From NCBI GenBank assembly GCA_965243855.1, contig CBDEWE010000002.1, forward strand, positions 31,659 to 95,658: a stretch of DNA of 64,000 bases, in the 5' to 3' direction. The position numbers were made by a program, and so were the translations under genes. Source of the DNA: an uncultured Candidatus Binatia bacterium (GTDB lineage Bacteria > Desulfobacterota > Binatia > Bin18). Below are positions 7,495 to 63,564 of the stretch, piece by piece. Positions within the stretch are counted from its first letter, which is position 1; every line of letters starts with the position of its first letter. The notes under the pieces were generated by a model. That model made no database searches and had not been told where the DNA came from. It was given only the letters and a program-made list of their open reading frames with translations.

Positions 7495-7861
7495 AAAGCT
7501 GGGCCTGGCCGCCGCCGTCTGCGCCTTCCTGGCGGCAGGAGGCTGCGCCCATCGGGAGCTGACGGCGCCCTGCTCAGATTACAAGGCGGCGCGCTTCCCC
7601 CCGGCGGCCATTTACGGTCCGGGCATGATCCCGTGTGACCATCCCTTGCCGATGGTCCGGCCGCCCTGGACCGCAGCCGCAGAGCCGCCGGCCCGGGTGC
7701 TGGGAGGGGAGGGCGTGACGGCCCGGGACGAGAGACGGACCGTCCGGCTCTCAACGGACGTGACCGAGAAACTGACGGCCCGGGAGAAAGAGCTGATGGC
7801 CGTGCCGGAGGGGATCAGCCCGGCGGTCGCCGCGGCCCTGGCGGCCCGCGCCCGGCGGTAG
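7466..7861 (+). CDS. Lipoprotein, putative entry-exclusion (Eex-like) protein
   Basis: Lipobox LAAGGC; lies between virB5 and virB6, where eex sits in pKM101/R388-type systems. Confidence 0.5.
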   Translation: MKTSIWQTGKKLGLAAAVCAFLAAGGCAHRELTAPCSDYKAARFPPAAIYGPGMIPCDHPLPMVRPPWTAAAEPPARVLGGEGVTARDERRTVRLSTDVTEKLTAREKELMAVPEGISPAVAAALAARARR

Positions 7862-8050
7862 CAGGCCCACGTCCGGACGCTGTAAGTGGCGAGAGGTTCA
7901 GGAGTGGCATATTGCGACACTCTCAAGAGCAACGACCACTCTGCGCCGTCCGGTTGCCCTCAACCAGAACCGGCTGCACCGACATCGGGGCATGCTCTCT
8001 CGACACGGGCTTGTCCTTGCCCCGGTCGCCGAGAGACCTGAGGTAAGCGC

Positions 8051-9067: not shown

Positions 9068-9070
9068 CCT

Positions 9071-9778
9071 ATGAAACTATGGCCTGCCTTTCTTGGCGAG
9101 AGCCGCGCGGTCGCACAAGAGACGACCTTTGACGCGGCCGCGACCTGGGAACAGGAAACGTATCTCTCTCTGCGCCGTTCGACACGCCGCGCCTGGGCCG
9201 TGGCCGGCGCAGCGGTCATGCTGGCCTTCCTGGCGATGGTGTCCCTTCTCCTCGTCCTGCCGCTCAAGGAATTTGCCCCGTATGTGGTCACCGTCGATAA
9301 AAACACCGGCTGGCTGGAAGTCACCCGGGGCCTGCGCCAGGGCAACCTCACGCAAAACGAGGCCCTGACCATCGCCAATATCGTGCGCTGCCTGACGGCC
9401 CGGGAGAGCTTCGACGCGACCGACTATCCCGAGCTGTACCGACAGGTCGGCTTGTGTATGACCGGTCGGCCGCTCGACGCCTACCGCCGCCAACATGCCC
9501 AGAGCAACATCAACTCGCCGCCGAACCTGTACGGGTATGATGGCATTATCCGAGTGGAGATCAGCAGCGTGAATCTGCTGTCCGAGAGCACGGCCCTCGC
9601 CAGCTTTCGGACCATCCTCGAACATCGCGGCCGGGAAGTGGTCAACCATTGGCGGGCGGCCATGACCTTCGCCTACACCGACAAGCAATTCACCATGCGC
9701 GACCGTTTCATCAACCCGCTCGGGTTCCAAATCTCGTCCTACCGGCGCGATCCGGACCTGGCCCCGACAGCGGAGTGA
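9071..9778 (+). CDS. virB8: VirB8
   Basis: Single TM, PLKEF.PYVVTVDKNTG, NPLGFQISSY. Confidence 0.95.
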   Translation: MKLWPAFLGESRAVAQETTFDAAATWEQETYLSLRRSTRRAWAVAGAAVMLAFLAMVSLLLVLPLKEFAPYVVTVDKNTGWLEVTRGLRQGNLTQNEALTIANIVRCLTARESFDATDYPELYRQVGLCMTGRPLDAYRRQHAQSNINSPPNLYGYDGIIRVEISSVNLLSESTALASFRTILEHRGREVVNHWRAAMTFAYTDKQFTMRDRFINPLGFQISSYRRDPDLAPTAE

Positions 9779-9821
9779 CCGGCGCGCGCAAGAACATAGA
9801 GTACGACAAGGAGGTAACAGT

Positions 9822-10760
9822 ATGCACCGCCGCACCCCTCTCTTGGCCCTGGCCCTGGTCGTCGCTATGACCGCGCCCGTCTTCGCGGCGGCCGAGCCGT
9901 CCCCCGGCCGCACAGACCCGCGTCTGCGCTGGATCGTCTACAACGAGCGGGAAGTGGTGGAAGTGAAGGGGCACTACGGCTACCAGACGCTGGTCCAATT
10001 CGGCGCGTCCGAGGAAATCACGGACGTGTCGATTGGCGACGGGATGGCCTGGCAAGTAGACATCCCGGCCCGTAAGAACCTGCTGTTTTTGAAGCCGGTC
10101 GAAGCCTACGCCTCCACCAATCTGACGGTCTTGACCGCCCGCCCGGCCCTGGACGGCTCGGGGGAGCGGACGCGCATCTACGTGTTCAGCCTGGTGGCGG
10201 CCGTGCCCCGCGAGGAAGGCATTTCGGCCGCGCTCCGTGACGCGGAACGGGAAGCGGCCATTCCCTCTTCTCAGCAGGCCGAACGAGGAGCCGCCGACTT
10301 TACGTGGCTTATCAACTTTCACTATCCGGAAGACCAGGCGGAGAGATTGACGCTACGGGTTCGTCGGACCCAGGAACGCCAAGACTCCCGGGTCGTCCCC
10401 GCCCGGGCGGGGAGTGAGGTGGGTATCGACCCGGCCGCCTGGAATTGGCAGTACACGGTGGCCGGGAATACGACACAAGCCCCGGTCAATGTTTTTGACG
10501 ACGGCCAGCACACGTATCTCCAATTCGACCCCAAGACGCGCGTGCCGGCCGTCTTCCTCGTCCATCCCGACGAAACGGAAAGCCTGGTCAACGTGGTCAG
10601 ACGCGGCCGCTTCCTGGTCGTGCATGACGTGGCCCGGCAATTTACGTTACGCAACGGCGAGATCGAAACGTGTTTGTTCAATGAAGCCTGGGACCCCGAA
10701 CCGGCCCGGACGCTGAACAGCCCGCGGGAAGACCCGGATTATGAACCGGGGTTGCTGTAG
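9822..10760 (+). CDS. virB9: VirB9/TrbG
   Basis: Signal peptide, DPRLRWIVY, TNLTVLT, VFDDGQHTY, ESLVN. Confidence 0.95.
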   Translation: MHRRTPLLALALVVAMTAPVFAAAEPSPGRTDPRLRWIVYNEREVVEVKGHYGYQTLVQFGASEEITDVSIGDGMAWQVDIPARKNLLFLKPVEAYASTNLTVLTARPALDGSGERTRIYVFSLVAAVPREEGISAALRDAEREAAIPSSQQAERGAADFTWLINFHYPEDQAERLTLRVRRTQERQDSRVVPARAGSEVGIDPAAWNWQYTVAGNTTQAPVNVFDDGQHTYLQFDPKTRVPAVFLVHPDETESLVNVVRRGRFLVVHDVARQFTLRNGEIETCLFNEAWDPEPARTLNSPREDPDYEPGLL

Positions 10761-10769
10761 GAGGCGGAT

Positions 10770-11921
10770 ATGGCTGAGCCTGCATCTCCCCGGCCCCCCG
10801 GTAATGGGGACGAGAACAATAGCATAGATCGAACCGCAACACCGTTGCGGGGGGCGTCCCGGCCGAATGTCGGGGCGGCCGTGTTCGTGTTCGCGCTCAT
10901 CCTGGTCGCCGGCCTGTGGTATGCCTTCTCCGGAGAGGAAAAGGTCGGACCAGACGGCCGGCCGCGTACGGTCGATCCCCCGGACCCGGCGGTTATCCCG
11001 CTTCCTTCCGCCCCACCGCCCATCGCCGCACCGCCACCCTCTCCGTCCCCGCCTCTAACAACGCCGGCGGTCGATCCGCTGGCCGAGCAGCGCGCCCGGC
11101 TGCTGGTCAACCGGATTCAGCGGCTGCAAAAAGAGATGGACGAGCGCCGGGAGTCCAAGATGCTGGTGGTGTCCGGTCGCTCCTCCGCCCGGCCCGGGGT
11201 GACGCCAGCCAGCCAGGCCGCTGGGCCGGCGCCGGCCGGCCGCGCCGGCGCGCCGGCCGATAATACCCCGCGTGACGGGGATGTCGGCCCGGTGGCCGAG
11301 CAGCAGGCCGTCCAAGCCCGGCTCATCCGCACCACCGGCTATACCATCACCGAAGGCACGGTGATTCCGGGGGTGTTGGAAACGGCCATCAACTCCGACC
11401 TGCCCGGCATGGTGCGGGCCGTCAACTCGGCCGCAGTGTTCAGCCATGACGGCTCGCAGCTCTTGATCCCCAAAGGCTCTCGTCTGGTCGGTCGCTACCA
11501 GTCGGAGGTCCGTCGCGGCCAGGTCCGTATTTTCATCATCTGGACCCGCCTGATTCGGGCCGATGGGCTGTCCGTTATGATCAACTCGCCCGGCACGGAC
11601 CCGCTCGGCCGCGCCGGCCTGGAGGGGGATGTCGATACCCATTTCTTTCAGATTTTCGGGGCCGCGATTCTGCTCAGCATCCTCGACGGCGGGATTGATG
11701 TGGGGTTGGAAATGGCCCGCCGGCAAGGCGACAACAGCGACACGACCATTATCCAGAACGACCGGGGCCTGAACCGCGCCACCGAGCTGGCCCTCCAGGA
11801 CACAATCCGGATTCAGCCCACCATCCACATCGATCAGGGCACGCAGATCAGCATTCTGGTGGCCCGCGACCTGGATTTTGAGGGGGTCGAACTGGCCCGG
11901 ACGACCGCGCAAGGGAACTGA
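10770..11921 (+). CDS. virB10: VirB10/TrbI
   Basis: TM plus Pro-rich linker; GTVIPGVLETAINSDLPG and DPLGRAG motifs. Confidence 0.95.
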   Translation: MAEPASPRPPGNGDENNSIDRTATPLRGASRPNVGAAVFVFALILVAGLWYAFSGEEKVGPDGRPRTVDPPDPAVIPLPSAPPPIAAPPPSPSPPLTTPAVDPLAEQRARLLVNRIQRLQKEMDERRESKMLVVSGRSSARPGVTPASQAAGPAPAGRAGAPADNTPRDGDVGPVAEQQAVQARLIRTTGYTITEGTVIPGVLETAINSDLPGMVRAVNSAAVFSHDGSQLLIPKGSRLVGRYQSEVRRGQVRIFIIWTRLIRADGLSVMINSPGTDPLGRAGLEGDVDTHFFQIFGAAILLSILDGGIDVGLEMARRQGDNSDTTIIQNDRGLNRATELALQDTIRIQPTIHIDQGTQISILVARDLDFEGVELARTTAQGN

Positions 11922-11925
11922 CACG

Positions 11926-13047
11926 ATGGCAGCCCACTCACCGGAAACCGGCGTTTTCCTCAAACGCTTCTTGCAACCGATACAGCCCTACCTCGATCAA
12001 GACGGCGTATCAGAGGTCTGCGTCAACCGGCCGGGGGAGGCCTGGGTGGAAGAGCAGGGCGCTCGGGGGATGGTCCGAAAGGAGGTTCCGGAGATAACGG
12101 AACGTTCCCTTGTCCAGCTCGCCCGCCAAGTCGCAGCCGCCTCGCATCAAGCGGTCAATGAACGCAAACCGCTGCTGTCGGCCGCGCTGCCGACAGGCGA
12201 GCGGATTCAGGTGGTTCTGCCCCCAGCCGCGAAGGACGGCGGGGCCTTTTCCATCCGCCGACAAGTTGTCCAGAACTTGAGCCTGGACGACTACGCCGCC
12301 AGCGGCGCGTTTCAGCGCGCTCGGGTGACGGCGGGGGACCATCGGTCGCCACTCGACCTGCACCTGTGCGAGCTGCTGACCGCCCACGATTGGCAAGGTT
12401 TTCTCTCGACGGCCGTGGCCGGCCGGAAGAACATGCTGATCGTCGGCGGGACCAGTACGGGCAAGACGACCTTTTTCAATGCCATCGCCAAAGAGATTCC
12501 CGCCGAGGAGCGGCTGGTTTCGCTCGAAGACACGCCCGAATTGGAGCTGCCGCAACCCAACGTCTTGCGCCTCATCGCCTCCAAGGGCGGCCAGGGCCAG
12601 GCGCAAGTCACGATCCAAGACCTGCTGGAGGCAAGTCTACGGCTGCGGCCTGACCGTATTCTGCTGGGCGAGCTACGGGGCGCGGAAGCCTACACCTTCC
12701 TGCAGGCCGTCAACACCGGCCATCCGGGGTCAATCTCGACCCTCCACGCCGACAGCCCCCGCACCGCGTTCGAGCGATTGGTTTTGATGGTCATGCAGGC
12801 CAACCTGGGCCTGCGCCGGGATGAAATTCTGGAATACATCCGTTCGGTGGTCGAGGTCATCGTGCAACTGACCCGGCTCCCGAACGGCCAGCGGTGCGTG
12901 AGCGAGGTGTATTTCGCGTACGCGCCGGACGGGTCGGAAGGGAAGGGAGCGGCGCCAAAGCGGCGCGGCCGCCCCCCGAAAGTCCGCGCTCTTGAGAGTG
13001 CGCGGCCCACGGGAGGGGCGGCCGGGGGCGGGAACGAACCGGGTTAG
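11926..13047 (+). CDS. virB11: VirB11 ATPase
   Basis: Walker A GGTSTGKTT, LEDTPEL, LRLRPDRILLGELRG, NTGHPGSISTLHA. Confidence 0.97.
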   Translation: MAAHSPETGVFLKRFLQPIQPYLDQDGVSEVCVNRPGEAWVEEQGARGMVRKEVPEITERSLVQLARQVAAASHQAVNERKPLLSAALPTGERIQVVLPPAAKDGGAFSIRRQVVQNLSLDDYAASGAFQRARVTAGDHRSPLDLHLCELLTAHDWQGFLSTAVAGRKNMLIVGGTSTGKTTFFNAIAKEIPAEERLVSLEDTPELELPQPNVLRLIASKGGQGQAQVTIQDLLEASLRLRPDRILLGELRGAEAYTFLQAVNTGHPGSISTLHADSPRTAFERLVLMVMQANLGLRRDEILEYIRSVVEVIVQLTRLPNGQRCVSEVYFAYAPDGSEGKGAAPKRRGRPPKVRALESARPTGGAAGGGNEPG

Positions 13048-13276
13048 GGGATGTCCGATGTATGGCTCTCGTATTGCGACCTGCGCGGCATCGCCCTTTC
13101 TCCTCCGGTTGGTCAAACAGAGCTGGGCACTGTGGCCTACCGGCGCTTTTCGGGCCGCTACGCGCCCCCAGAGGCCCGCACCCAGTCGGCAGGGGGCTTG
13201 GGCCTAGGCGCGGGCCAATTCGTGTCGCCCTGGGGCCTGGAGGGCCGGCCAGCGGCGTAACTGAAAGGAGGCAGCG

Positions 13277-15046
13277 ATGGAAAACAAGTGGATTGTCGGC
13301 GTGGGCGTGGTCGTCGGCCTGGCCCTGTTGAGCTTCGCTTGGAGCGCCACGCTGACCTACCTGCTCACCGGCTCGCTCAAAGCCCTCAACGATATGCAAC
13401 CCTGGGCGGTCTACACGTTCATGTGGACCTACGGATTCACGGGGCGGGCCGGTACACTCTTGTGGAACTCCCTGCTCCTCGCGCTGGGCTTCTCCGGCCT
13501 CCTCTCCATCCCGTTCTTTTTCTTCTCCCGGCCGACCTGGTACGGGGACGCGCGCTGGGCGCGCTGGGGAGAGATTCGCAAGGCGAAGCTCCTGGCCCGG
13601 ACCGGCCTGGTCCTGGGGAAGAAGGGCGGGCAGTACTTGGTCAACTCGGAGCCTGTGCATGTCCTGGTCGCCGCCCCGACTCGTAGCGGTAAAGGCGTCG
13701 GCGTGGTCATCCCGAACCTGCTGTTCTGGCAGGACAGCGTTGTTGTCCTGGACATCAAGCACGAGAACTACGCCGCCACGGCCGGCTATCGCCGCCAGCT
13801 CGGCGGTTCCACGGTCTTTAAGTGGTCGCCGATGGACGGACGCTCGCACCGCTACAACCCCTTCGATTTCATCGCCCAAGAGGGGCCGCGGCGGATCACC
13901 GATATGCAGCTCCTGGCGACCATCCTGCTCCCCGCCCCCCCGCGTTCCGATCCCATGTGGATCAACGAGGCGCGCGACTTGTTCTTGGGGGTCGCACTGC
14001 TCGTGCTCGACGATCCGGACGCGCCCTCGACGCTCGGCCAAGTATACCGGACGCTCAAGCAGGAAATGAATTTCGCCGCGGTCGCCAAGCAAGCGCTGGA
14101 GCAGACCGACTTTCCGCTTGATCCCATCTGCCGCCAGGCCCTCGCCAATTTCGTCTACAAGGCGGACAAGGAACAGAGCGGGGTCAAGTCTACGCTCACG
14201 TCCGCGCTCAACCTGTGGGCGAATCCGAACATCGACGTGGCCACGGCCGGCTCGGATTTCGACCTGCGGACGTTCCGCAAACAGCGCGCCTCGGTCTTTG
14301 TCGGCGTGGCGCAGGATCAGCTTGTGACGCTCGCGCCGCTCCTCAACCTGTTCTTTCAGCAGGCCGTCGCCACCTTGAGCCATGCCCTGCCTGGGGAGGA
14401 CGAAACCCACGACGTGCTGTTTATGATTGACGAGTTTCCCATGCTCGGGAAAATGGAGAGCCTGGCAAAGGGTCTGGCCCTGCTCGCCGGCTACAAAATC
14501 CGGATCGTCCTCATTACCCAGGGGCTCGGCCAGCTCAAGGAGATTTACGGCCTGGGCGGCCAGGAAGGCATCCTCCAGAACTGCGCCCTCCAAGTCTTCT
14601 TTGCCTCGAACGACGACAGCACCACCAATTACGTCTCCGGCCGCCTTGGCACACGGACGGTCCAGATCAAAAGCCGCAGCCAGGCCCAGGACTGGAAAAC
14701 CACTACGTCTATGAGCTACATCGCCCGGCCGCTGATGGCGCCGGAGGAAGTCCGCCGGCTCGATCCCGCCAAAACCATCCTGTTCAAGGAGGGCTCACGC
14801 CCGCTGCTGGCCCGCAAGATCAGGTATTACAGCGACCGGCTATTCACCCGCCGGCTGCTTGATCCGCCGCCGGTCCCCGTCCTGGAAATCCCCAAACCAC
14901 CCTTGAGCCGCGCCGAACGCGCGGGCGTTGAGCTTGCCGAGATGATACAGCGCAACGCGCCCGCGCAAGAGCCGGGCGATACGCCGACGCCGGCCGAGCT
15001 GGAAGCGATCTATACCCGCTTCGACGCCTCCCGGCCGGCCGCGTAA
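13277..15046 (+). CDS. virD4: VirD4/TraG coupling protein
   Basis: Two N-terminal TMs, YGDARWA, APTRSGKG, MIDEFP. Confidence 0.97.
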   Translation: MENKWIVGVGVVVGLALLSFAWSATLTYLLTGSLKALNDMQPWAVYTFMWTYGFTGRAGTLLWNSLLLALGFSGLLSIPFFFFSRPTWYGDARWARWGEIRKAKLLARTGLVLGKKGGQYLVNSEPVHVLVAAPTRSGKGVGVVIPNLLFWQDSVVVLDIKHENYAATAGYRRQLGGSTVFKWSPMDGRSHRYNPFDFIAQEGPRRITDMQLLATILLPAPPRSDPMWINEARDLFLGVALLVLDDPDAPSTLGQVYRTLKQEMNFAAVAKQALEQTDFPLDPICRQALANFVYKADKEQSGVKSTLTSALNLWANPNIDVATAGSDFDLRTFRKQRASVFVGVAQDQLVTLAPLLNLFFQQAVATLSHALPGEDETHDVLFMIDEFPMLGKMESLAKGLALLAGYKIRIVLITQGLGQLKEIYGLGGQEGILQNCALQVFFASNDDSTTNYVSGRLGTRTVQIKSRSQAQDWKTTTSMSYIARPLMAPEEVRRLDPAKTILFKEGSRPLLARKIRYYSDRLFTRRLLDPPPVPVLEIPKPPLSRAERAGVELAEMIQRNAPAQEPGDTPTPAELEAIYTRFDASRPAA

Positions 15047-15057
15047 AGGAGGCGGCG

Positions 15058-17406
15058 ATGGATCAGGAGACGTTGAACAAGACGCTGGCCGCCCATCAAA
15101 TCTGGCTGGATAGCGCCGGCCAGGACGGCCAGCGCGCCGACCTGTCGGGAGCGGACCTGCGCTTCCTCAATCTGAGTGGGGTGAGGCTCAAGGAAGCCGT
15201 CTTGCGCGGCGTCGACTTGGTGGGCACGAATCTGACTGGCGCGGACCTCGAAGCAGCGGACCTCGAAGGCGCCACGCTGTTAGGGGCGCGGCTGGAAGGG
15301 GCGAATCTGGAGCGCGTTCACGCGCCTGGGGTGAATTTCTTTAGCGCCAATATGACGGCCGCAAGTCTGCGCCACGCCGACTTGCGGGAGGCGGTATTAC
15401 AAGAGGCGACCTTGACGCAAGCCAAGTTGCACGACGCGACCTTGACGGAGGCGAACCTACTCAAAGCGCAGCTAGAGGAGGCCGACCTCACCGCCGCAGT
15501 CCTGGAAGGGACGACACTGGATGAGGCGAATCTGCGGGACGCCACCCTCCAGCGCGCTCGCCTCGAACACGCTACCCTCATTGACGCGCGTTTATCGGGC
15601 GCGGACCTGGAGGCCGCACAACTGGATAAGGCCGTCCTTATCCGCACAGACCTGGAGGCGGCAAAGCTGGAAAAGGCCAGTTTCGAGGACGCCCACATGG
15701 AAGGGGCGAAGCTCAAGAAGGCCCTCCTTCTTGGCACGGTTTTGGACGGGGCAAATATGGCCGGTGCCGAAGTCGAGCGCGCCGACTTGAGGGATACGCC
15801 GGAGGGGACGAGACAGCCAGCGCTCGATAAGATTTTGGCGGATCATGCCTTGTGGCTAGGTCAAAAGGGCGGGCGTCGCGCCGAGCTGGCAATGGCGGAC
15901 CTGCGCGGGGTCGATTTACAGGGCGCTGACCTCAGCCATGCGGACTTGCAGGGAGCCTTATTGGACGACGCCAACCTGAACGATACAAAGCTCCGTTCAG
16001 TGATCCTCAGCGGCGCCAGCCTGGCGCGCGCATCTCTCCAGCGTACGGATATGGAAGGCGCGGTCTTGCGCGCGGCAAACTTTACCGAAGCCGATCTCCA
16101 GCAGGCCGACCTGACCGCTGTGATGGCGAAAAATGCGATGTTTGAGGCCGCGAATCTGGAGCGTACGGCCTTGCGCGCGGCCGACTTGACCGCCGCGGAT
16201 TTACAAAAGTCGTTCCTTGACCGGGCAACGCTGGTGGGCGCGAATCTGACGGGGGCAGACCTCCGGGTGGCGGATTGTACCGCTACCGTCTTTCTCGAAG
16301 CGCGGCTACCGGGCGCCGACCTCGGCCTGGCGAAGCTCGATCTGGCGGACCTGCGCGGCGCGGATCTGCGCGGCACGAGCCTGACGGAAGCGACGCTAGA
16401 AGGCGCCGACCTGGAAGGCGCGGCTTTAGAGGCGGACGCCTCCCCTCTCACCCGCCGCGATATGATCGAGGAGATTCTAGCCGAGCATCAAACCTGGTTG
16501 GAGACGGAAGGGGAGGGCCGCCGCGCCAATTTGGAGATGGCCGACCTGGCGCACCTGGACCTGCGCGGGGTCAACCTCTCGATGGCGCAACTCCACGGCG
16601 CGCGCCTGGAAGGGGCGGATCTGCGCGAGGCGAAGCTTATCGAGGCGGATATGTTAGGGACTCGGGCCTCTCAGGCCGACATGCGCGGCGTAGTGATGGA
16701 TGGGGTGAATCTGGAGCGCGCCACCCTGGAACGAACCAAGTTACAGAATAGTATCCTGACTCGGGGAAATCTCACCGAAGCCTATCTATGGGGCGCAGAC
16801 CTTCACGGCGCCCAAGCCGAGTGCGTGAACTTCCTTGACGCCCAGCTCCATGGCGCCGACCTCACCGGCGCCCATCTGGCGGTCAGCTCCTTTCAGGGCG
16901 CAGACCTGACGGAAGCGACGCTCAATGGCGCCGACCTGGAAGGCGCAGACTTGAAAAGGGCCTGGCTCATATCAACCGAGCTGGAAGGGGCCAATTTAGG
17001 CCGGACGATTCTGGAACGAGCGGCCGTCCCGGAAGTGGACAGCCCCGCGTCGCAGCCTACGGTCTGGGAGACGGTCAAGCAGCGCGTCGGGGCCTGGTTC
17101 TCGCGAGAAGACGCGCCCGCCCCGGACCCGCCGCCGGCTGCGCCACGCCCCGAGGCCCGGACGGACCGCGACTCGGCCGAAGGCTCGCAGCTCGCGTCCG
17201 CCAAGCGGACGCCGACGCGGGAGGCCGCCCAAGCCGCCTGCGCGCAGATTCTGGCCCATCCCGAGGAGACCCGGGCGGCCATCGCGCAGATGGCGGACCC
17301 GGCCGACCGGGCCAAAGCCGAACGGCTCTTGGCAACGGTTGAGCAGGCCGCGGCCGCCCACCAGCGGACGCCTGAGCGCACCGCTGCGGCCGAGCGAGAC
17401 CGCTAG
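15058..17406 (+). CDS. Pentapeptide-repeat protein with three repeat modules and a charged C-tail
   Basis: Extensive A(D/N)L-type pentapeptides and three H..WL...G.RA(D/E/N)L caps; RBS GGAGG 11 nt after the virD4 stop. Confidence 0.9.
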   Translation: MDQETLNKTLAAHQIWLDSAGQDGQRADLSGADLRFLNLSGVRLKEAVLRGVDLVGTNLTGADLEAADLEGATLLGARLEGANLERVHAPGVNFFSANMTAASLRHADLREAVLQEATLTQAKLHDATLTEANLLKAQLEEADLTAAVLEGTTLDEANLRDATLQRARLEHATLIDARLSGADLEAAQLDKAVLIRTDLEAAKLEKASFEDAHMEGAKLKKALLLGTVLDGANMAGAEVERADLRDTPEGTRQPALDKILADHALWLGQKGGRRAELAMADLRGVDLQGADLSHADLQGALLDDANLNDTKLRSVILSGASLARASLQRTDMEGAVLRAANFTEADLQQADLTAVMAKNAMFEAANLERTALRAADLTAADLQKSFLDRATLVGANLTGADLRVADCTATVFLEARLPGADLGLAKLDLADLRGADLRGTSLTEATLEGADLEGAALEADASPLTRRDMIEEILAEHQTWLETEGEGRRANLEMADLAHLDLRGVNLSMAQLHGARLEGADLREAKLIEADMLGTRASQADMRGVVMDGVNLERATLERTKLQNSILTRGNLTEAYLWGADLHGAQAECVNFLDAQLHGADLTGAHLAVSSFQGADLTEATLNGADLEGADLKRAWLISTELEGANLGRTILERAAVPEVDSPASQPTVWETVKQRVGAWFSREDAPAPDPPPAAPRPEARTDRDSAEGSQLASAKRTPTREAAQAACAQILAHPEETRAAIAQMADPADRAKAERLLATVEQAAAAHQRTPERTAAAERDR

Positions 17407-41833: not shown

Positions 41834-42712
41834 TTAGTCCTCGGCCTCGCCGTCGTCCCCGAGAATACAGTCTGCCGCCCGCTGGGCCTGGGCCGCTGCG
41901 TGCACCAGCAGCTTGGTGTCGTCCTGGAGTTTCCGCAGCCACCCCTGGATGTAGCTGGCCGAGTCGTCGCAGGTCCGATTCTCGATCCCCGCCACACCGC
42001 ACAGGAAGGCCGCCCCCATCTCTGCGCACAACTCCTCTTTGCTGTAATTGGTATCCCCAAAGGCCACCATATCAACCAGGGTCGGCCGATTCAGCCGGCT
42101 TGGGTGGCCGGTGGCATGGGTCAGTTCGTGAAAGAGGGTGGAATAGTATAGTTCGGGAGCGGCAAACCGCCCCGGCTCCGGCATGGTCACGCGGTCCGCG
42201 CTGGGCCGGTAGAAAGCCCTCACACCGGCGTGGACGATCTCCGGTCGGTTCGGCATGTGCTCAACGGTCCGCTCGCAGGACAGGATTTTTTGCGCCGCGT
42301 CCATCTCGGGGGCCTGAATCTCCGCCCGCTTCCGCCACGCCTCGGGCAACTCGCATTGGGTCGCGTTGAACACGGTAAAGGACCGCGCCACGGCGAAGCG
42401 CTCGGGCTTGGCATCGTCCGCTGCGTCCGCCTCGGGTCGCTTCTCCACCCATTTCCAGAACACGACCTCAACCCCGCGCTCGCCCTTCTTGACGTGGCCG
42501 CCGATCTTCTGCGCCTGGCGGTAGGTCAGCCAAAACGGGGAGCCCCCGGCCGCCATCAACACCCACACATTCACCCCCCGGTACACGTTGCCGCTGACAA
42601 GGTTCCGGGGCTGCCCCTGGCGTCCATTCCAGGGCTTCTGCCACGGCACAACCCCCTGCGCTAAGGCATCCATAATGCGTGTGGTCACACTTGCGTAAAC
42701 GTCCCTGCTCAT
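41834..42712 (-). CDS. ardC: ArdC anti-restriction protein (ssDNA-binding plus zincin-like domain)
   Basis: VVPWQKPW, YRGVN, HELTHATGH..RLNR, YSKEELCAE. Confidence 0.95.
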   Translation of the reverse strand: MSRDVYASVTTRIMDALAQGVVPWQKPWNGRQGQPRNLVSGNVYRGVNVWVLMAAGGSPFWLTYRQAQKIGGHVKKGERGVEVVFWKWVEKRPEADAADDAKPERFAVARSFTVFNATQCELPEAWRKRAEIQAPEMDAAQKILSCERTVEHMPNRPEIVHAGVRAFYRPSADRVTMPEPGRFAAPELYYSTLFHELTHATGHPSRLNRPTLVDMVAFGDTNYSKEELCAEMGAAFLCGVAGIENRTCDDSASYIQGWLRKLQDDTKLLVHAAAQAQRAADCILGDDGEAED

Positions 42713-42739
42713 AGCACCCTCCTCTGTAAAGTAAAAAAG

Positions 42740-43480
42740 AAAGAAGATTTTTCCCGGCTCTCACCCACCTCTGTGGCCGGGAAAAATCGGACCGGCCAGG
42801 GTGCTTGCGCCTCCCACACCTGGAAGCCGACCGGCAGCGCAACGCGTGACAGGCTCTGCCTGGCGCACGTTGCCAGGGAGGCGTTGCCTTCGTCCGAGCG
42901 GGCGCTTGGCTTTGCGGCCGTGACAGGCTCTGCCTGGCGCGGGTGCTCAGGCGACCGCCTTCCAGCTTTGCCGGGACGGTCCGCGTTCAGCGGCCGGTCT
43001 GGCTAAGCCTTGCCCCTACCGGCGAGCTGGGACGGCGGAGGCCGGTCCTGCTCGTCGGCTCCCGCCCCGACCGGCTGGGGGCCGACCTGCTCCGGGTCCG
43101 GAAGCGGACCGGGAGCGGGGGAGAGGGAGGGAGCGATAGAGGATGTGCGAATGGGTGGGGTGTGAATGGGCGGCCCAGAGCCACAATCCTGGGCCGCGGC
43201 CGGAACGTAGGGAAGGAGGGGGGGATCGGCGCAGCACTGCCGCGCCAAAGCGCTGCGGTGCTGCGCCTCGGGGGGCCAGCGAACTGGGCCGGCCCATGTC
43301 CGGGCCTGTTCGCTGGCCTGCCTTTCGCGGCCGATGTCGCAAAAAACGGCATCAGGCACGCCTGTAAGTGCCTATTCTTTGGTGAGGGTCTTGGTATGAG
43401 CCGAACCGATTACGGGCCACCACGGCCCCGTATGGAAGTCGGTTTTTGCGGGCGAAGGCCAAAAACGGCGGTTTTGGCCT
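42740..43480. repeat. Leading-region intergenic repeat, copy B
   Basis: 13-bp stem 42746-42758/42776-42788 with 17-nt TCTCACCC loop; shared blocks. Confidence 0.85.
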
Positions 43481-43575
43481 GGTTTCTCGGTTTGGGAGGG
43501 TAGGGAAGGCGGGACGCGACAGCAAGAGTCACCGACCGGCAACGCGCCCCACCGGCGGGATGGCGGAGCACTCGC

Positions 43576-43938
43576 TCAGGGCGGCCAAGCGCGGGCCTGG
43601 CCGCCTGGGACAGGTTTATCGTTGCGGTTGCTTGTCACCCAGCCGTCCGCGACGTGGAACAGGTACATGGTGAGCGCATAGCGGATGCCGCGGGACAAGT
43701 GGATTCCGTCGTCCTCCTCCATGGCCTCCCGTGCGTCATAATCGGTTGTGTCTAGCTCGGTGAGGTTATCGGCGAAAATCCGAACCAACTCGACGTCCTC
43801 CTCGGGGACACAGTCGCGCGCGATGGCGTAGATCGAACCGCACCGTTCTTCAAGGGCCTGCCTCTCAATCTGCGTCGCCTGCTCCTGCACCCGCCGCAGG
43901 CATCTGGTTTCCAAGGCTTTGAGATCAACATTGCTCAT
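43576..43938 (-). CDS. Hypothetical acidic protein
   Basis: RBS GAGGAGG; 120 aa; downstream of ssb. Confidence 0.7.
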   Translation of the reverse strand: MSNVDLKALETRCLRRVQEQATQIERQALEERCGSIYAIARDCVPEEDVELVRIFADNLTELDTTDYDAREAMEEDDGIHLSRGIRYALTMYLFHVADGWVTSNRNDKPVPGGQARAWPP

Positions 43939-44020
43939 ACCGTCCTCCTCTGACTATGCGGCCAGGCTCACGACCTAGCCGCTGCCTGGGACGGCAGGGC
44001 CAGCGCCCTGCCGATTGATT

Positions 44021-44404
44021 CTAGGAGTCCGGGTCGGCGGCCGGTGTGCCGTCGCCGGCGTCCGCACCGTTCTCCTTCCGACCCCCGAGAAACTGCACCT
44101 GCTGGGCAATAATCTCGGTCACGGACCGTTTGTTGCCGTCTCGATCCTCATAGCTCCGCGTCTGGAGCCGACCTTCCACCATGACTTGGCGACCCTTGGT
44201 GAGATACTGTCCGCAGGTCTCGGCCAGCTTCCCCCACACCACCACCTGATGCCATTCGGTCCGCTCTTGGCGGTCTTCTCCCTCACCCCACGCGTCCGTC
44301 GTCGCCACCGAAAAGTTGGCCACCGCCCGTCCGCTCTGTGTCTGGCGAACCTCCGGCTCGTTGCCCACATTCCCGAGAATCATCACTTTATTCAGCGCTG
44401 CCAT
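44021..44404 (-). CDS. ssb: Single-stranded DNA-binding protein
   Basis: NKVMILGNVG..PEVR.T.SG..VANFSVAT, TEWH.VVVW, VEGRLQTRSYED. Confidence 0.97.
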   Translation of the reverse strand: MAALNKVMILGNVGNEPEVRQTQSGRAVANFSVATTDAWGEGEDRQERTEWHQVVVWGKLAETCGQYLTKGRQVMVEGRLQTRSYEDRDGNKRSVTEIIAQQVQFLGGRKENGADAGDGTPAADPDS

Positions 44405-44665: not shown

Positions 44666-45241
44666 CTTTGAACAGGCCAGCCCAACGGGCGGATGGTTCT
44701 AAGCCTCAGATGGCCGGTCGAGCGGGACCGGTGGAAGCCGGACCTGGTCGGACAGCCCCTTGCCGCGCCGGACGCCGCTAGAGCGACGTCGGGCGCGGCC
44801 TCAGTACTTGATTTGTGACGAAGGGCTGAGGGGGGAATGGATAAAGCGGCCTGTCTGGGCAAAAGACGGCTGTCGAATCTCGTCGGCGGATCGGGTTAGG
44901 TAGGCTATCGGAGTGGGGGCGCGCGGTGTGCGCGGCACGGGCCCCGACAAGGCCCTACAATACTCCGGGGGCGGAGCCGATGGGAGCTGGACCTGGTCGG
45001 ACGACACCGCCGTAATCAGATCCACTCTGTACCTTGCATTGTGTCCAAGTCCGTTGAGTTGGGCGTGGCTGCCCAGTCGTCCTTCACACGATTTACTCCC
45101 AACCGCTCCCCCACCGTCTTGCACCGAACTGAGCAATGTGTCATTGATTAGTTACTCCGTTGCGTCCCACTATATGATACGGGCCGTAGCGGCATAAGAA
45201 GGGCTCCTGCGGGAGCCCTTGCTATTTTGAGTGGAACAGCC

Positions 45242-46090
45242 ATGGATCGTGTAGCGATTTTTGTTGACGCAGGATATCTCTTCGCTCAAGGCAGCACAGC
45301 TCTGGTGGGCAGCAAAAAATCAAGGGCTGAGCTTGTTCTTGATCCGCCGAAGGTCATAGCTGAACTGAGATCACTGGCGCTTTCTCAAGCGCCAGGATGC
45401 AGACTCTTACGTATTTACTGGTATGACGGTGCTATCGGTGGGGCACGACCCACGACGGACCAAGCCTCGCTCGCGAATTTGGATGACGTTAAACTTCGTC
45501 TCGGGTTTGTGAATAACGTGGGAGAGCAGAAAGGCGTCGATTCTCTTATCGTGACAGACCTCATCGAACTAGCACGGCTCAACGCGATAGCTGAGGCCGT
45601 TCTGTTATCTGGTGATGAAGACGTACGAGTGGGGGTGCAGATCGCCCAAAATTATGGGGTCCGTATACACCTCCTCGGAATCGTCCCAAGCCGGGGCTCT
45701 CAATCGCATCAGCTGCTTCAAGAAGCCGACACCTCTACCGAATGGAGCGCTGAAACCATCGCATCGTTTTTGTCTCTTCGCACAATCAGCCCCAATTCCC
45801 TCGAAGCTCCGTCACGACCTCCAACGGTTGCGACGCCGGTCTCGCCATCCGAAGACACACGCCCTCTGGAAACGATAGAACAGTCGGTCCAGACTTTTAT
45901 CGATGCCTTATCCGATGCCGATATTCGCGGTATTCTGGCCTACTGGGAAACAGAGCGCGGGATTCCGGCAGAGTTTGATAGAAGGCTGCTCCCGAGCTGC
46001 AGGGCTGCGCTCGAACGCGATCTGGAGCCCAACGAAATCCGGCATATGCGTCGCTGTTTTCAGCGGCTCGTGAGAGATCGTTCGGCATAG
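45242..46090 (+). CDS. NYN (LabA/DUF88, PIN-like) domain protein
   Basis: FVDAGYL, IYWYDG, QKGVDS, LLSGDED, ADT. Confidence 0.92.
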   Translation: MDRVAIFVDAGYLFAQGSTALVGSKKSRAELVLDPPKVIAELRSLALSQAPGCRLLRIYWYDGAIGGARPTTDQASLANLDDVKLRLGFVNNVGEQKGVDSLIVTDLIELARLNAIAEAVLLSGDEDVRVGVQIAQNYGVRIHLLGIVPSRGSQSHQLLQEADTSTEWSAETIASFLSLRTISPNSLEAPSRPPTVATPVSPSEDTRPLETIEQSVQTFIDALSDADIRGILAYWETERGIPAEFDRRLLPSCRAALERDLEPNEIRHMRRCFQRLVRDRSA

Positions 46091-46369: not shown

Positions 46370-47827
46370 TCATCTAACGCTCGCGTCGCTTCGTTCCGAC
46401 TGGTGATCCTCCCCCCTGGAATACCCAGCAAGCGCGTCGGCGCGCTCTTTCAGGTACTCTGAATACCGCAACTGATTGGCCAAGTCATCGCCCTCAAGAC
46501 CACTAAGGAGGAGATTTTTGAGGTCTCGCTGTGCTACTGGAATTGAGCGCCAGGGCACAATGGCGTCGAGAGGAGCCATGAGGCGTTTGCGCATCCCTTC
46601 GTCGGCGGTGCGCCGATGCTCTGTCGTAAGCAGGTCAGGCCGCTCAAGATAAATGAGTCGTAGCGCCAGGCGACGGTATCTCGTGTCACTGAGTTGCAGG
46701 GCCAGTCCTCGCCGTTTCTCCCAAGGGGCTGTTTGAAAGCGTTGCATGAGGACTTCATCTTGCTGCGGCGGGAATTCATGCCCGTAGAGTTGCTCCTCGA
46801 CGTGCGGTGACGGCGGATAAATTGGCTCTGCAGCCTGCACCGCTTTTCGAAGCCGTTCCAAGAAAGGCTTATCCTCTCGGAGTTGCACGACTTGATCCAA
46901 GACCTCGTCTTCGTTCTCGAAAGGGGCAAGATGTTCTTGAGTCGCCTCATAGAGGGCCCATAAGGTCGGCGCTGCGTTCGTGCGGATTGTCACGATCGGT
47001 CGCGTTCTACTCTTGCAGAGAGAGATCAGTGCCTCGTCCGACATCCCTCGAAGCGTGTCAAGGTCGGCGCTTACATCAAGGCAATAATGCCGTATCGCCA
47101 GTTCACTATGTTTGCCGATTAAGGTCACAACGCGGGCGCGATAATTATTGCCGATAGTCTCCGATACCAAAAATGCGTCTTCCTCGGTGATGAAAGATTC
47201 AACACTTGCCTTCTGGCTGAATCTCAGAAATTGCGACCAGATCTCAGGCGCGCGATTCCTGATAGTCTGGCAGAGTGCGTGTGTAGTCGAGACATCGGCC
47301 ATGGCGTCGTGTGACAGCGGCGCAGCAATACCGTTCGCTTCGGCGAGCGCCTTGAGTTTGAAGATGGTGCGACCATTCTCGTCGGTCGCTGGCTTTATCA
47401 CGTCTGGCCGAATGGCTGCCGTAAGGCGACACAGATTTAGAACGTCAGCTCGCGCATTTCCCTGCGTGTTCGTCAGAAATGGGCGGTAAAGACACTGGTA
47501 GAATGCCCGGCGTAAGAATTCTTCATCGAACGATAAGGAGTTAAAGCCGAGAAACAGGGTAGGGGACCAGGACTCTAGGATGTGGCGAACCTTTGCGACC
47601 ATCGCGTAATGCGAGGGCAAAGAGGTATCGAGGAGTTGCTCTATGCGAAGCCCTGTCACATGCATCGCCTCCGGCGAAGGGATGACATGAGGCATCAGGC
47701 GGCAGCGGATCTGAAATTTCTCTGTGATGTTCAGTTCCGGGTCCGTGCGGACAGCCGCGAACTGAACGATCTGATCAAAACTCTTCGTTAGTCCTGTGGT
47801 CTCGACGTCGTAGATGACAAAACTCAA
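46370..47827 (-). CDS. Exonuclease I (SbcB)-like DEDDh 3'-5' exonuclease
   Basis: YDVETTG, GFNSLSFDEEFLR, HDAMADV; TTG start overlaps the ImmA stop. Confidence 0.9.
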   Translation of the reverse strand: MSFVIYDVETTGLTKSFDQIVQFAAVRTDPELNITEKFQIRCRLMPHVIPSPEAMHVTGLRIEQLLDTSLPSHYAMVAKVRHILESWSPTLFLGFNSLSFDEEFLRRAFYQCLYRPFLTNTQGNARADVLNLCRLTAAIRPDVIKPATDENGRTIFKLKALAEANGIAAPLSHDAMADVSTTHALCQTIRNRAPEIWSQFLRFSQKASVESFITEEDAFLVSETIGNNYRARVVTLIGKHSELAIRHYCLDVSADLDTLRGMSDEALISLCKSRTRPIVTIRTNAAPTLWALYEATQEHLAPFENEDEVLDQVVQLREDKPFLERLRKAVQAAEPIYPPSPHVEEQLYGHEFPPQQDEVLMQRFQTAPWEKRRGLALQLSDTRYRRLALRLIYLERPDLLTTEHRRTADEGMRKRLMAPLDAIVPWRSIPVAQRDLKNLLLSGLEGDDLANQLRYSEYLKERADALAGYSRGEDHQSERSDASVR

Positions 47828-48354
47828 TCCGACTCTCCAAGTGAGCTCAATCGATAGCGCATGGCGGCATCGCTCACCCTAAAGCGCTTGGCAAGCGCGG
47901 CCACAGCCTTATCGTCCTCAAGGTCAACGGAACGACCTTCAAGGGCTGATATCAGGAGCTCGGTCGGCATGAGCAATTCGGCCGCGAAAGTGTTCGCTTC
48001 GATTTCAATGGGATCCACGCCCGTAGCAGCGAGCGCGTCGCGCCGTAGCGAACCGCGATCAACATGTACAGCGCCCTCAAGCTCGCTGCGGTGGAGCTGA
48101 ACGTGCGCCAGTTCATGGGCGAGCGTGAAGCGCTGTCGAGTGGGCGCGTGCAGCGTGTTGATGCCCACAATCGGCACGTCGTCCCGAATATGGGCGAGTC
48201 CAGAGAGTTCACTGTCGAGCGGAGCATACTCCACGCGGATGCCACAGGATTTGACAATGCGCTCGATAGGAACCGGCGCGGCCTTAACGCCGTGCTGGCT
48301 GAGCAGCGTCTGCGCTGCTCTTTGAGCTCCTTGCTTTTGGGCGTGTCGACTCAT
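47824..48354 (-). CDS. ImmA/IrrE-family metallopeptidase
   Basis: RQRFTLAHELAH, E.EANTFAAELLMP. Confidence 0.93.
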   Translation of the reverse strand: MSRHAQKQGAQRAAQTLLSQHGVKAAPVPIERIVKSCGIRVEYAPLDSELSGLAHIRDDVPIVGINTLHAPTRQRFTLAHELAHVQLHRSELEGAVHVDRGSLRRDALAATGVDPIEIEANTFAAELLMPTELLISALEGRSVDLEDDKAVAALAKRFRVSDAAMRYRLSSLGESD

Positions 48355-48367
48355 GATGAACCCCTTT

Positions 48368-48700
48368 TCAGACGATCTTCCCGAGGGCCGAGGCAACCAC
48401 ACTTTTGACCGCCGATTGCTGCTGCGTGCTTAAGCTCGGATCGCTGACTTTGATCCCAGGTAGAGGCTCTGGAGGCACCCAGGTTTTAGGCATGAGGTCC
48501 AGAATCGATTTGAGCTTGAGCGCATTCACGAGCGCGAAGAGCTGATGCACCATGATGCGCTGACGGCCGTTTTCGAGGTTAGCGAGTGAGGCTCTGGAAA
48601 GCCCCAGCTTTTCCGCGATGTCGCTTTGCGTAAGGCCAAGCTCTCGGCGGCGCTTCGCAACCGCCTGACCGAGGCGACGATAGAGTTCCATATCCGACAT
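48368..48700 (-). CDS. XRE-family HTH regulator
   Basis: RRRELGLTQSDIAEKLGLSRASLANLENGRQ. Confidence 0.95.
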   Translation of the reverse strand: MSDMELYRRLGQAVAKRRRELGLTQSDIAEKLGLSRASLANLENGRQRIMVHQLFALVNALKLKSILDLMPKTWVPPEPLPGIKVSDPSLSTQQQSAVKSVVASALGKIV

Positions 48701-48986
48701 TACCGCACCATACCTGACACTACTATAAACTGCTCCTTTCTTTAATGTGCGTCAAGCTGACGCCATGTACTCTGTCCTCACTCCTAGGGCCGTGCCTGCG
48801 GCTGGCCTGGGGCCGATCTGGTCCGACATCGCGGTTGGTCCGTCTCGATGCGCGCAATGCCAACGCCAGCCCGCCACACCTCCAGACCGAAGAATCTATC
48901 GCGAGATTCCAACCAAAACCATCAGTTGTCACATCGTTTATAAATGTGTATACTACAAACATAAAAAATATATTTAGTGTTTTGTA

Positions 48987-62370: not shown

Positions 62371-63564
62371 ATGGACTTCAGCGCCGCTCCATCCTTAATA
62401 GGCTATCTGTTCCAGTGTAGATACGCCCTACTTGAAAGCTTGCGACGCCTGCGAAGAAGCGAAATATTTAGCGTTTCTATAGAGACGCTAGATGACGTTG
62501 TTTTCGAAACTGACGACAGTGCCTTTGATTTACTTCAGACAAAGCACCATATCTCACGGAAAGCTAACCTCACCGACGCTTCCCCCGACCTCTGGAAAAG
62601 TATCAGAATCTGGTGTGAGGGTTTGGCCGATGACTCCATCCCAGAAGGCTCTTTCTTCTACTTAATCACAACATCAACCTCCGCTGAAGGAAGTATCGCC
62701 CAGTATCTTGGCCCTGGTAGTACCCGAGATATTGGAAAGGCTGTTGAACGTTTAAATTCGACCGCTGGGTCCTCCGATAGTCAAACGCTTCAACCCGCCA
62801 TTTCAGCCTTTCTTCAACTTTCAGAAGCGTCTAAGCGTTCCCTCGCCGAATCAATGTTTGTATTAGACAGTGTGCCCTCAATCACAGACCTCGATGGCGA
62901 GTTGAAAGAAATGGTCTTCCCAGTCGCGGCACGCCGGCACCTAGATTCTTTCTTACAACGCTTAGAGGGCTGGTGGCTCAGGCGTGTCATTAGGCACCTG
63001 ACTTCATCAAGCTCTGACTCGATTATCAGTGAGGAAGTGGAAGCCGAAACGGAAAGGCTTCGTGAACAGTTCAAGCAAGATAGCTTGCCGATTGATGATG
63101 ACATCATGGACGCGAGCGTCGATGCATCCGGTTACCAAGACAAAGTCTTCGTGCAGCAACTACACCTAATTGAAGTTGGTAACCCCCGTATCCTTCAGGC
63201 TATCCGCAACTACTTCCGAGCATTTGAGCAACGCTCTCGATGGATACGCGAGGACCTCATACTAATTGGCGACCTCTCCCGATACGAACGTCAACTCATC
63301 GAAGAATGGGAAATCTTCTTCAACCAGATGGATGATGACCTTGGCGAAGCTGTCACAGAGGAGGCAAAAAAGAAGGCAGCACAGGCCCTCTACAAGTGGG
63401 TTGAAATAGGTTCACATCTTCCAATCCGCCGTGATGTCACGGAACCCTCTATTGCTCGTGGAAGCTATCACATGCTTGCAGACCGCCTACAGGTTGGCTG
63501 GCATCCTGAGTTTCTTGACCGACTAAAGCACCTGCTTGAACCTGTGGAGGCTGCTAACCCATGA
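62371..63564 (+). CDS. ABC-three-component/Lamassu LmuA-like nuclease effector
   Basis: A.PSLIGYLFQ.RYAL, ETLDD...LQTKHH (PD-(D/E)xK type), RGSYHMLAD...GWHP. Confidence 0.82.
   Translation: MDFSAAPSLIGYLFQCRYALLESLRRLRRSEIFSVSIETLDDVVFETDDSAFDLLQTKHHISRKANLTDASPDLWKSIRIWCEGLADDSIPEGSFFYLITTSTSAEGSIAQYLGPGSTRDIGKAVERLNSTAGSSDSQTLQPAISAFLQLSEASKRSLAESMFVLDSVPSITDLDGELKEMVFPVAARRHLDSFLQRLEGWWLRRVIRHLTSSSSDSIISEEVEAETERLREQFKQDSLPIDDDIMDASVDASGYQDKVFVQQLHLIEVGNPRILQAIRNYFRAFEQRSRWIREDLILIGDLSRYERQLIEEWEIFFNQMDDDLGEAVTEEAKKKAAQALYKWVEIGSHLPIRRDVTEPSIARGSYHMLADRLQVGWHPEFLDRLKHLLEPVEAANP

Follow-up and report, generated by a model that had tools for sequence, protein, structure and literature searches.

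The window analysed here is a stretch of 64,000 nucleotides from an uncultured Candidatus Binatia bacterium (contig CBDEWE010000002.1), a conjugative element that carries a type II Bil anti-phage operon and, transcribed away from it, a group of three genes. The first of these (48700-48368, minus strand) encodes a CapH-like XRE/HTH repressor of 110 amino acids (HTH_3 at 1.4e-12, PADLOC capH at 3.6e-8), the second (47824-48354, minus strand) a CapP-like metallopeptidase of the M78 (ImmA/IrrE) family of 176 amino acids (Peptidase_M78 at 6.8e-27, PADLOC capP at 2.1e-32) and the third (47827-46370, minus strand) an Exonuclease I (SbcB)-type protein of 485 amino acids with the Pfam domains RNase_T and Exonuc_X-T_C. 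These genes, referred to as capH, capP and exoI, are a single conserved cassette that stands back-to-back with anti-phage operons in about 60 loci from many bacterial phyla. The XRE gene agrees with capH in its layout: it lies immediately 5' of the M78 gene, is divergent from the defence operon and shares a promoter region with it, and this divergent layout of XRE and M78 genes recurs in about 60 related loci.

An earlier note on this DNA had described an HTH gene, a HExxH peptidase gene and an SbcB-like exonuclease gene as tightly linked and back-to-back with a Bil-like operon. This description holds, with the HTH_3, Peptidase_M78 and RNase_T/Exonuc_X-T_C matches falling where the genes had been placed and PADLOC identifying a complete type II BilABCD on the other side. 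The overlap reported between the exonuclease start and the peptidase stop is also present, with the sequence TTGA at 47824-47827 (minus strand) containing both the TGA stop of capP and the TTG start of exoI, an arrangement that suggests translational coupling. For the start of the peptidase the open reading frame (ORF) finder gives a GTG at 48402, but the real start is placed at the ATG at 48354 because the 120 closest homologues are nearly all exactly 176 amino acids long.

Close relatives of the window ExoI number in the hundreds, both in metagenomes and in genomes. An alignment of 22 of these, used to scan a single genome from each species, gave 80 loci, and in about 40 of the 44 evaluable genome loci that have an ExoI of at least 38% identity (tblastn) capH and capP lie directly upstream of it, in the order HTH gene, peptidase gene and then ExoI. 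The exceptions to this linkage are a decayed copy (L009), a number of stand-alone ExoI genes in unrelated contexts (L034, L041, L045/L052, L047) and a group with ExoI of 28% identity in conserved, housekeeping-like surroundings (L048-L055). The trio is found in Binatia, Acidobacteriota, Gemmatimonadota and Alpha-, Gamma- and Deltaproteobacteria. At the junction of capP and exoI there is a 4-nucleotide NTGA overlap in the 15 closest loci and a gap of 4-19 nucleotides in the others, the peptidase is 170-180 amino acids long at each locus (the sole exception, of 196 amino acids in L027, is a mis-extended call) and the ExoI gene is always within the regulator operon and never within the cargo operon. 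Conserved across phyla alongside differing defence cargo, the three genes form the tight unit that the note had proposed, and the lack of recurrence of the sbcB linkage, which the note had named as a ground for refuting its idea, is ruled out by the survey.

Recurrence was also surveyed in the reverse direction, by a metagenome scan seeded with the peptidase that gave 80 loci of 33-59% identity. Those loci nearest to the window CapP have ExoI directly downstream, and in the more distant of the 80 metagenome loci the equally short CapPs have neither ExoI nor a conserved third gene. Within a neighbour-joining tree of 120 peptidases the 59 that are linked to ExoI form essentially one clade, in which a few members lack the nuclease (L096, L099-L102, L108) or have a replacement, and the pairwise-identity matrices of CapP and ExoI correlate with r = 0.88 across 32 loci. 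Because the ExoI-linked CapPs form one clade, the outgroup is without ExoI and the two proteins correlate in this way, the nuclease must have been gained in a single lineage of short CapH/CapP modules and passed on with them from then on.

Other genes are occasionally seen in the position of exoI. In L090, a member of the ExoI-linked CapP clade, a protein of 473 amino acids with an HD domain is encoded there (929-2350), and in L136, a module of the ExoI-less outgroup, capP is followed by a DprA/SLOG-like gene (6094-6801), which belongs to a family that binds single-stranded DNA (ssDNA). The third slot of the module may therefore hold other nucleic-acid enzymes.

The cargo that the cassette faces is variable. 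In the window it is a complete type II BilABCD (49084-51901, plus strand) in the order ubiquitin-like protein, E2, JAB, E1. bilA (49084-49631, PADLOC BilA 3.6e-36) encodes the ubiquitin-like protein and begins at the ATG at 49084 after a GGAGG ribosome-binding site, with the start ATGAC invariant in an alignment of eight Bil loci. It is followed on the same strand by the E2-like bilB (49628-50104, PADLOC BilB 2e-46, Pfam DUF7665/BilB-like), by bilC for a JAB deubiquitinase-like protein (50052-50573, PADLOC BilC 5.5e-60), the start of which is approximate as the BilC match begins at residue 25 of an ORF opening at 50004, and by the E1-like bilD (50555-51901, PADLOC BilD 4e-122). Elsewhere the cargo was annotated from about 30 genes chosen to represent clusters of loci. 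Type II BilABCD is found in 12 genome loci in addition to the window, Prok-E2_C/E1 with JAB in L014, L023 and L024, an E2-E1-JAB fusion with an LmuA/MBL-like partner in L020, L029 and L046, and multi-ubiquitin/E2/E1 systems of the Bub type in L016, L026, L028, L033, L035, L042 and L043. Cyclic-oligonucleotide-based antiphage signalling systems (CBASS) are also present, as type I (cyclase and SLATT two-transmembrane protein) in several loci, type II (patatin, cyclase and E1-E2) in L030 and type III (cyclase, TRIP13 and SAVED-nuclease, or TIR) in several loci. Because the divergent cargo varies between loci in this manner, the cassette travels as a regulator and passes from one abortive-infection-type system to another. 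A hot spot on Rhizobium plasmids, between an AddAB-like helicase-nuclease pair and integrase/repABC, holds the trio in two plasmids from cultured strains, together with Bil in Rhizobium anhuiense pRA_T24_3 (NZ_CP098802, L162) and with a multi-ubiquitin system in R. leguminosarum pRL4b1 (NZ_CP050107, L163).

The nuclease of the window is a true ExoI, and judged by its residues is predicted to be catalytically intact. Its residues 2-387 give a match to E. coli ExoI at E = 9e-34, the identity being approximately 25%, and the DEDDh residues D7, E9, D101, H173 and D178 correspond to D15, E17, D108, H181 and D186 of E. coli and do not vary in any of 43 loci (32 from genomes, 11 from metagenomes). 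The three-domain fold of exonuclease, SH3-like and C-terminal helical domains is retained, as seen from the Pfam matches and from the AlphaFold2 (AF2) model of P0039, a homologue of 71% identity, which superposes on E. coli ExoI with a template-modelling (TM) score of 0.83 over the whole target (0.83-0.84 over 459-468 residues for 1FXX and 4JS4) and in which the ExoI part is well folded. R148 of E. coli, which contacts the tail of SSB (single-stranded DNA-binding protein), is kept in 19 of 32 loci and is not conserved in the more distant members.

Two other affiliations for the nuclease were considered and rejected. The best PADLOC model is RTasSbcB (1.2e-100, profile positions 2-417 of 436), the name of which hints at a link to DRT systems; no reverse transcriptase was found among the subset of window ORFs that was scanned or among the roughly 30 annotated representative cargo genes, and the link was dropped on the absence of such cargo among the annotated genes. 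Membership of the small CBASS Exo/Cap18 lineage was set aside since the PADLOC CBASS 'Exonuclease' model gives a weak match only (3.3e-5, residues 3-112), no Cap18-type chain is among the PDB matches of the window ExoI at 1e-3, the gene sits in the regulator operon and the cargo includes Bil and Bub.

Within the wider ExoI family deviations were noted in P0311, P0324 and about 4 of 149 representatives, some proteins carrying C-terminal extensions and a few representatives having lost DEDDh residues. The extensions are of about 250 amino acids, that of P0311 carries DUF6508 and that of P0324 has no Pfam match.

The peptidase of the cassette is a smaller protein than the CapP that has been characterised. 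Its active site residues H80, E81, H84 and E117 (HExxH and the distal Glu) are invariant in 32 loci, and it is built of the peptidase domain and a short helical tail and no more. Characterised CapP is 288-291 amino acids long, with peptidase, HTH and GAF domains, and in both CapP and IrrE the groove that holds ssDNA is formed between the peptidase and the C-terminal GAF domain. No GAF domain is present in the 176 amino acids of the window peptidase, and the three-domain build of CapP is not found there: the PADLOC capP profile is covered solely at positions 4-155 of 242, the PDB matches are confined to the peptidase and HTH portions of IrrE and CapP and end at residue 183 of IrrE and residue 172 of CapP, of about 291, and all close homologues are of 160-180 amino acids. 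There is also no switch-loop cysteine between HExxH and E117, the loop instead carrying a conserved VHVD..LRRD motif, although the cysteine-switch loop occurs in only about a third of CapPs and is not strictly defining. The premise of the earlier note that the peptidase binds ssDNA, as in described CapH/CapP pairs, cannot be transferred to a peptidase of 176 amino acids that lacks the GAF domain with which CapP and IrrE form their ssDNA groove, and for the same reason ssDNA should not be assumed to be the ligand of the window CapP.

The region between capH and bilA contains several sequences through which a repressor might act. The Bil promoter (48987-49015, plus strand) is sigma-70-like, TTGACA-17-TATACT, and matches the consensus at 11 of 12 positions, with the -35 at 48987-48992, invariant in the eight-locus alignment, and the -10 at 49010-49015. 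Adjoining this -35 is an imperfect inverted repeat at 48954-48986, consisting of TACAAACA (48954-48961) and TGTTTTGTA (48978-48986) as candidate CapH operator half-sites, with one extra T making it imperfect, so that a repeat finder without gaps does not report it. The note had drawn attention to this repeat just upstream of the -35, where it does indeed lie, but taken alone it is no better than chance, as the window holds 6 copies of ACAAACA where 3.3 would be expected. More can be made of it by comparison. In the eight Bil loci the boxes ATGTGT..CACAAACAT and GTGTTT are found at fixed distances from the invariant TTGACA, and it is these boxes that make up the inverted repeat of the window. 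The two of them are good operator candidates for CapH. ACAAAC/GTTTGT is in addition the most enriched non-promoter hexamer in the intergenic regions between capH and cargo, on a par with the -35 hexamer, and is present in 28 of 39 non-redundant loci compared with 5.8% of control windows, an enrichment that is indicative only because the controls are GC-rich coding DNA and the 39 loci are related.

On the minus strand the promoter of capH was located by conservation and is not called by a simple promoter scan. The block GTCAGCTTGACGCACA ... CAGTTTAT upstream of capH is conserved in the Bil-linked clade, and its palindromic core in the window, GCGTCA-GCT-TGACGC (48749-48763, minus strand), which has one exact match there, covers the capH -35 (TTGACG, 48755-48750) and is a candidate autoregulatory site. 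Putative CapH-site sequences within 48740-49050 are ACAAACA/TGTTTTGT, GCGTCAGCTTGACGC and a further palindrome at 49027-49047, all of them candidates.

This further palindrome, CGATGGAGAC-G-GTCTCCATCG, is perfect, has arms of 10 nucleotides and lies in the 5' leader of bilA about 12 nucleotides past the -10. Its pattern GATGGrGA..TCyCCATC is kept in the eight aligned Bil-linked loci and was not seen in CBASS- or Bub-linked loci, and it may represent either a second operator or a hairpin formed in the RNA. A second promoter-like site, TTGTCA-17-TATACT, is found at 48926-48954 (plus strand), 61 nucleotides upstream of the main Bil promoter, with 10 of 12 consensus positions matched and its -10 overlapping the left operator box. 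At 48765-48925 there is a GC-rich spacer of about 160 bp between the capH promoter and the AT-rich Bil promoter, which is common only to the window and L002, L003 and L004, with most relatives having a compact intergenic region of about 200 bp.

That CapH/CapP adjoin Bil and Bub operons is already published, with the pair divergent from type II Bil in 25 of 162 operons and associated with Bub operons in 168 of 544, as well as with CBASS, DISARM and 6A systems. What appears undescribed is an exonuclease gene as third member of this DNA-damage switch, itself already known. The literature compared (Lau 2022, Chambers 2023, two 2024 Bub preprints, a 2026 CapP mechanism preprint and a 2026 CapK/CapS paper) has no exonuclease partner, and within the library searched no paper has SbcB together with CapH or CapP, though a passing earlier mention of an HTH-ImmA-exonuclease neighbourhood, for example in Burroughs et al. 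2015, is possible, and to that extent the statement of the earlier note that the three-gene arrangement is unlike described systems stands. The cassette resembles CapH/CapP (Lau et al. 2022, bioRxiv 10.1101/2022.04.27.489752; Calloji et al. 2026, 10.64898/2026.05.16.725639) in that an M78 gene comes directly after an XRE gene, a promoter region is shared with the defence operon, from which the two genes diverge, the HExxH and Glu are intact and the cargo spectrum takes in CBASS, 6A E2-E1-JAB, Bil and Bub. It differs in the length of the peptidase (176 against 288-291 amino acids), which lacks the GAF domain, the canonical ssDNA groove and the loop cysteine, and in having a third, translationally coupled gene for a full ExoI.

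More distant parallels are informative as well. The logic of an M78 peptidase that cleaves a repressor is shared with ImmR/ImmA of ICEBs1 and IrrE/DdrO of Deinococcus, the window being itself conjugative like the former. ImmA is also a short peptidase. Unlike these pairs, which have no dedicated exonuclease and of which IrrE has a GAF domain, the window cassette would control anti-phage Bil and not genes for transfer, excision or repair. The nuclease shares with E. coli ExoI the DEDDh motifs and all three domains, yet its gene is on mobile defence loci and in a regulator operon, it is not housekeeping and R148 is kept only in part. An ExoI-type nuclease that holds defence off by removing ssDNA is known from DRT10/UG17, where the SbcB of the host suppresses DRT10 via degradation of cDNA and a phage SSB-like protein shifts the balance (bioRxiv 10.64898/2026.04.29.721553), but there the nuclease belongs to the host and the ssDNA is the system's own cDNA, whereas here the nuclease is encoded by the cassette. 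The second case is Exo/Cap18 of CBASS, a DEDDh nuclease that sets the activation threshold of cGAS-like enzymes (bioRxiv 10.1101/2025.03.04.641389). That enzyme is small, homodimeric and RNase T-like, is found in CBASS operons, acts specifically on 2'-5' dinucleotides and leaves ssDNA uncut, in contrast to the window enzyme, which is of the ExoI lineage and also accompanies cargo other than CBASS.

The working of the cassette that we favour is one in which capH, capP and exoI are a single autoregulated operon and ExoI tunes and resets an ssDNA signal, making the cassette a portable control for costly abortive-infection-type operons; these two parts are held jointly, at somewhat short of an even chance. 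CapH bound to the conserved intergenic sites would hold both of the divergent promoters low. Upon DNA damage or infection a signal based on ssDNA, the type of signal to which modules with CapP, CapW and CapK respond, would lead the M78 peptidase to cut CapH and Bil would be switched on. ExoI, catalytically intact, would be made in a fixed proportion to the peptidase and would digest 3'-ended ssDNA of the same pool, so that more ssDNA would have to be present before the switch is tripped. As ExoI would be co-induced with the cassette, it is further proposed that it clears the signal so that new CapH can re-close the switch. Tuning of the signal is favoured on account of the conserved catalysis, of two precedents and of the fact that the nuclease has been added to modules able to work in its absence. 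The constant place of ExoI in the regulator operon and the conserved architecture of promoter and half-sites also count for the proposal. The reading draws upon the gene order, coupling, co-inheritance, changing cargo, intact active sites and absent GAF domain of the cassette, and from these features we infer the repression by CapH, its cleavage by the peptidase on an ssDNA-linked signal and the action of the nuclease upon that signal. The idea of the earlier note that a dedicated ExoI sets the ssDNA threshold or resets the signal is plausible and is supported in part.

A number of points weigh against this proposal. Its mechanism is built on the comparison of sequences and models, the window CapP is without the GAF domain that in characterised CapP and IrrE makes up the ssDNA groove, and canonical CapH/CapP control the same kinds of cargo with no dedicated nuclease. 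The sister two-gene modules, with CapP equally short, work without ExoI, which marks the nuclease as an add-on, and whether such an addition damps or enables the response is not readable from sequence. The AF2 model of P0039 has a predicted TM score (pTM) of 0.70 with a weak peptidase domain and carries no interface information.

The same missing domain can be turned to a different account, in which ExoI is the ssDNA sensor or adaptor. The GAF-less peptidase, its own ssDNA groove lost or never present, would itself be unable to bind ssDNA and would be activated when ExoI engages or stalls on a 3' ssDNA end, such that ExoI would be needed for induction and would not damp it. The coupling of capP and exoI in all loci and the co-evolution of their products accord with this. 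So too does P0039, a natural in-frame fusion of CapP and ExoI of 653 amino acids, which is again beside Bil (L001/L005, 9473-11434, OZ244055) and in the AF2 model of which the last helix of CapP continues into the first strand of ExoI, the strand bearing the active-site D/E. However, the fusion arises from one extra base in the G-run GAGGGCCGAGTGAGT of a long-read metagenome-assembled genome, for which reason it may be genuine or may stem from a homopolymer error of the long reads, and no other N-terminal M78-ExoI fusion was found in the best 150 representatives out of 1.84 billion. Being a single case of this kind, it was discarded as strong evidence. A pure sensor would also need no invariant catalytic residues, and the many sister capH-capP modules without ExoI or a conserved third gene imply that the peptidase does not generally need a partner. 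It was this metagenome scan of short CapPs that led to the replacement of the missing GAF domain by ExoI being downgraded as the main explanation, and a sensor or adaptor role for ExoI, although the most serious rival, is considered rather unlikely.

A related form of switch would be of the guard type and act on transcription. Here the GAF-less peptidase would read the working state of its ExoI, whether engaged, stalled or blocked on 3' ssDNA, for instance by phage SSB-like proteins or exonuclease inhibitors, with CapH then cut and defence turned on, and the nuclease would serve as both sensor and reset. This is considered quite unlikely.

Alternatively ExoI may play no part in signalling and be co-induced as an additional output, acting as an effector or in repair, that degrades invading ssDNA such as conjugative T-strands and intermediates of ssDNA or rolling-circle phages, or that aids recovery. 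An apparently active and complete enzyme, from an operon with probable autoregulation and induction alongside the cargo, would suit this role, as would the conjugative nature of the window and the several matches on conjugative plasmids. Yet ExoI follows the clade of the regulator and no type of cargo, it is always coupled to the gene for the peptidase and in no case lies in the cargo operon, and its housekeeping-type relatives elsewhere are without capH and capP, all of which makes an output role decidedly unlikely.

The analogy with DRT10, where SbcB exerts the restraint and a phage SSB-like protein is the trigger, raises the further thought that ExoI is a guard or decoy, there to attract phage proteins which inhibit the exonucleases of the host or, being SSB-like, cover ssDNA, and that its inhibition by them would let ssDNA accumulate locally and trip CapP. 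Enzymes of the ExoI type dock on SSB tails and the contact residue R148 is kept in 19 of the 32 loci, but this residue is not conserved in the distant members, no phage partner is known and the argument rests on analogy, leaving a bait function highly improbable.

Could the nuclease act on something other than DNA, removing 2'-5' linear dinucleotide intermediates in the manner of CBASS Exo/Cap18 and so thresholding the cargo directly? There is a known DEDDh nuclease that sets a threshold for CBASS, CBASS makes up much of the cargo and the weak PADLOC match at 3.3e-5 points the same way. Against these stand the three-domain ExoI lineage of the window enzyme (E = 9e-34, TM 0.83), which is not that of the small RNase T-like Exo clade, its place in the regulator operon and its equal linkage to Bil and Bub, which make no nucleotide signal, and the idea is given very little credence. 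That ExoI is a passenger with no role in the module, as the few clade members without it might suggest, is scarcely credible given that intact active sites and coupling have been retained over about 60 loci, several phyla and many swaps of cargo.

Should the preferred reading of ExoI as a device that tunes and resets the signal be true, it would extend what is known of the control of defence by ssDNA, at a time when the means by which anti-phage systems stay silent but inducible are under active study. Three families of regulator are known to read ssDNA, CapW, CapH/CapP as well as CapK/CapS, and in the published cases the level and lifetime of the ssDNA signal are left to the host. A widespread clade of regulators with its own intact ssDNA exonuclease would have a built-in device for threshold, reset or sensing, and exoI would offer a genetic handle on how the dose of ssDNA is converted to expression of defence. 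GAF-less CapP-like peptidases are also seen to accompany Bil, Bub and CBASS operons as presumed controllers. The Rhizobium plasmids NZ_CP098802 (Bil) and NZ_CP050107 (multi-ubiquitin) provide the trio in cultured carriers.

The conjugation genes of the window lie at 4352-17406 and 41834-44404 and include VirB4, VirB6, VirB9, VirB10, VirB11 and a VirD4-type coupling protein, with ArdC and SSB also among the transfer and leading-region genes. The earlier note had thought that a dedicated ExoI would suit an element that itself arrives as ssDNA. The window is conjugative and so are 5 of the 7 plasmid matches, in keeping with this, but a link to entry as ssDNA is possible and not general, because the trio is also found in chromosomal defence islands beside restriction systems.

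A number of smaller observations concern the rest of the window. The C-terminus of its SSB (…TPAADPDS) is unlike the usual acidic DDDIPF tip, and a pentapeptide-repeat protein of 782 amino acids is encoded after the conjugation genes. The defence island, at about 45-64 kb, contains genes for NYN, Bil, tyrosine recombinase, DUF3800, DUF6414 and TIR proteins and a Cap4-nuclease/CTD7 protein, with candidate defence genes around the trio at 45227-46090, 52091-56732 and 62371-63564. The TIR protein is membrane-anchored and ThsB-like, the Cap4-nuclease and CTD7 parts belong to one protein (ABC-3C), and the NYN-domain protein is also adjacent to the trio in L002, where it is 90% identical.

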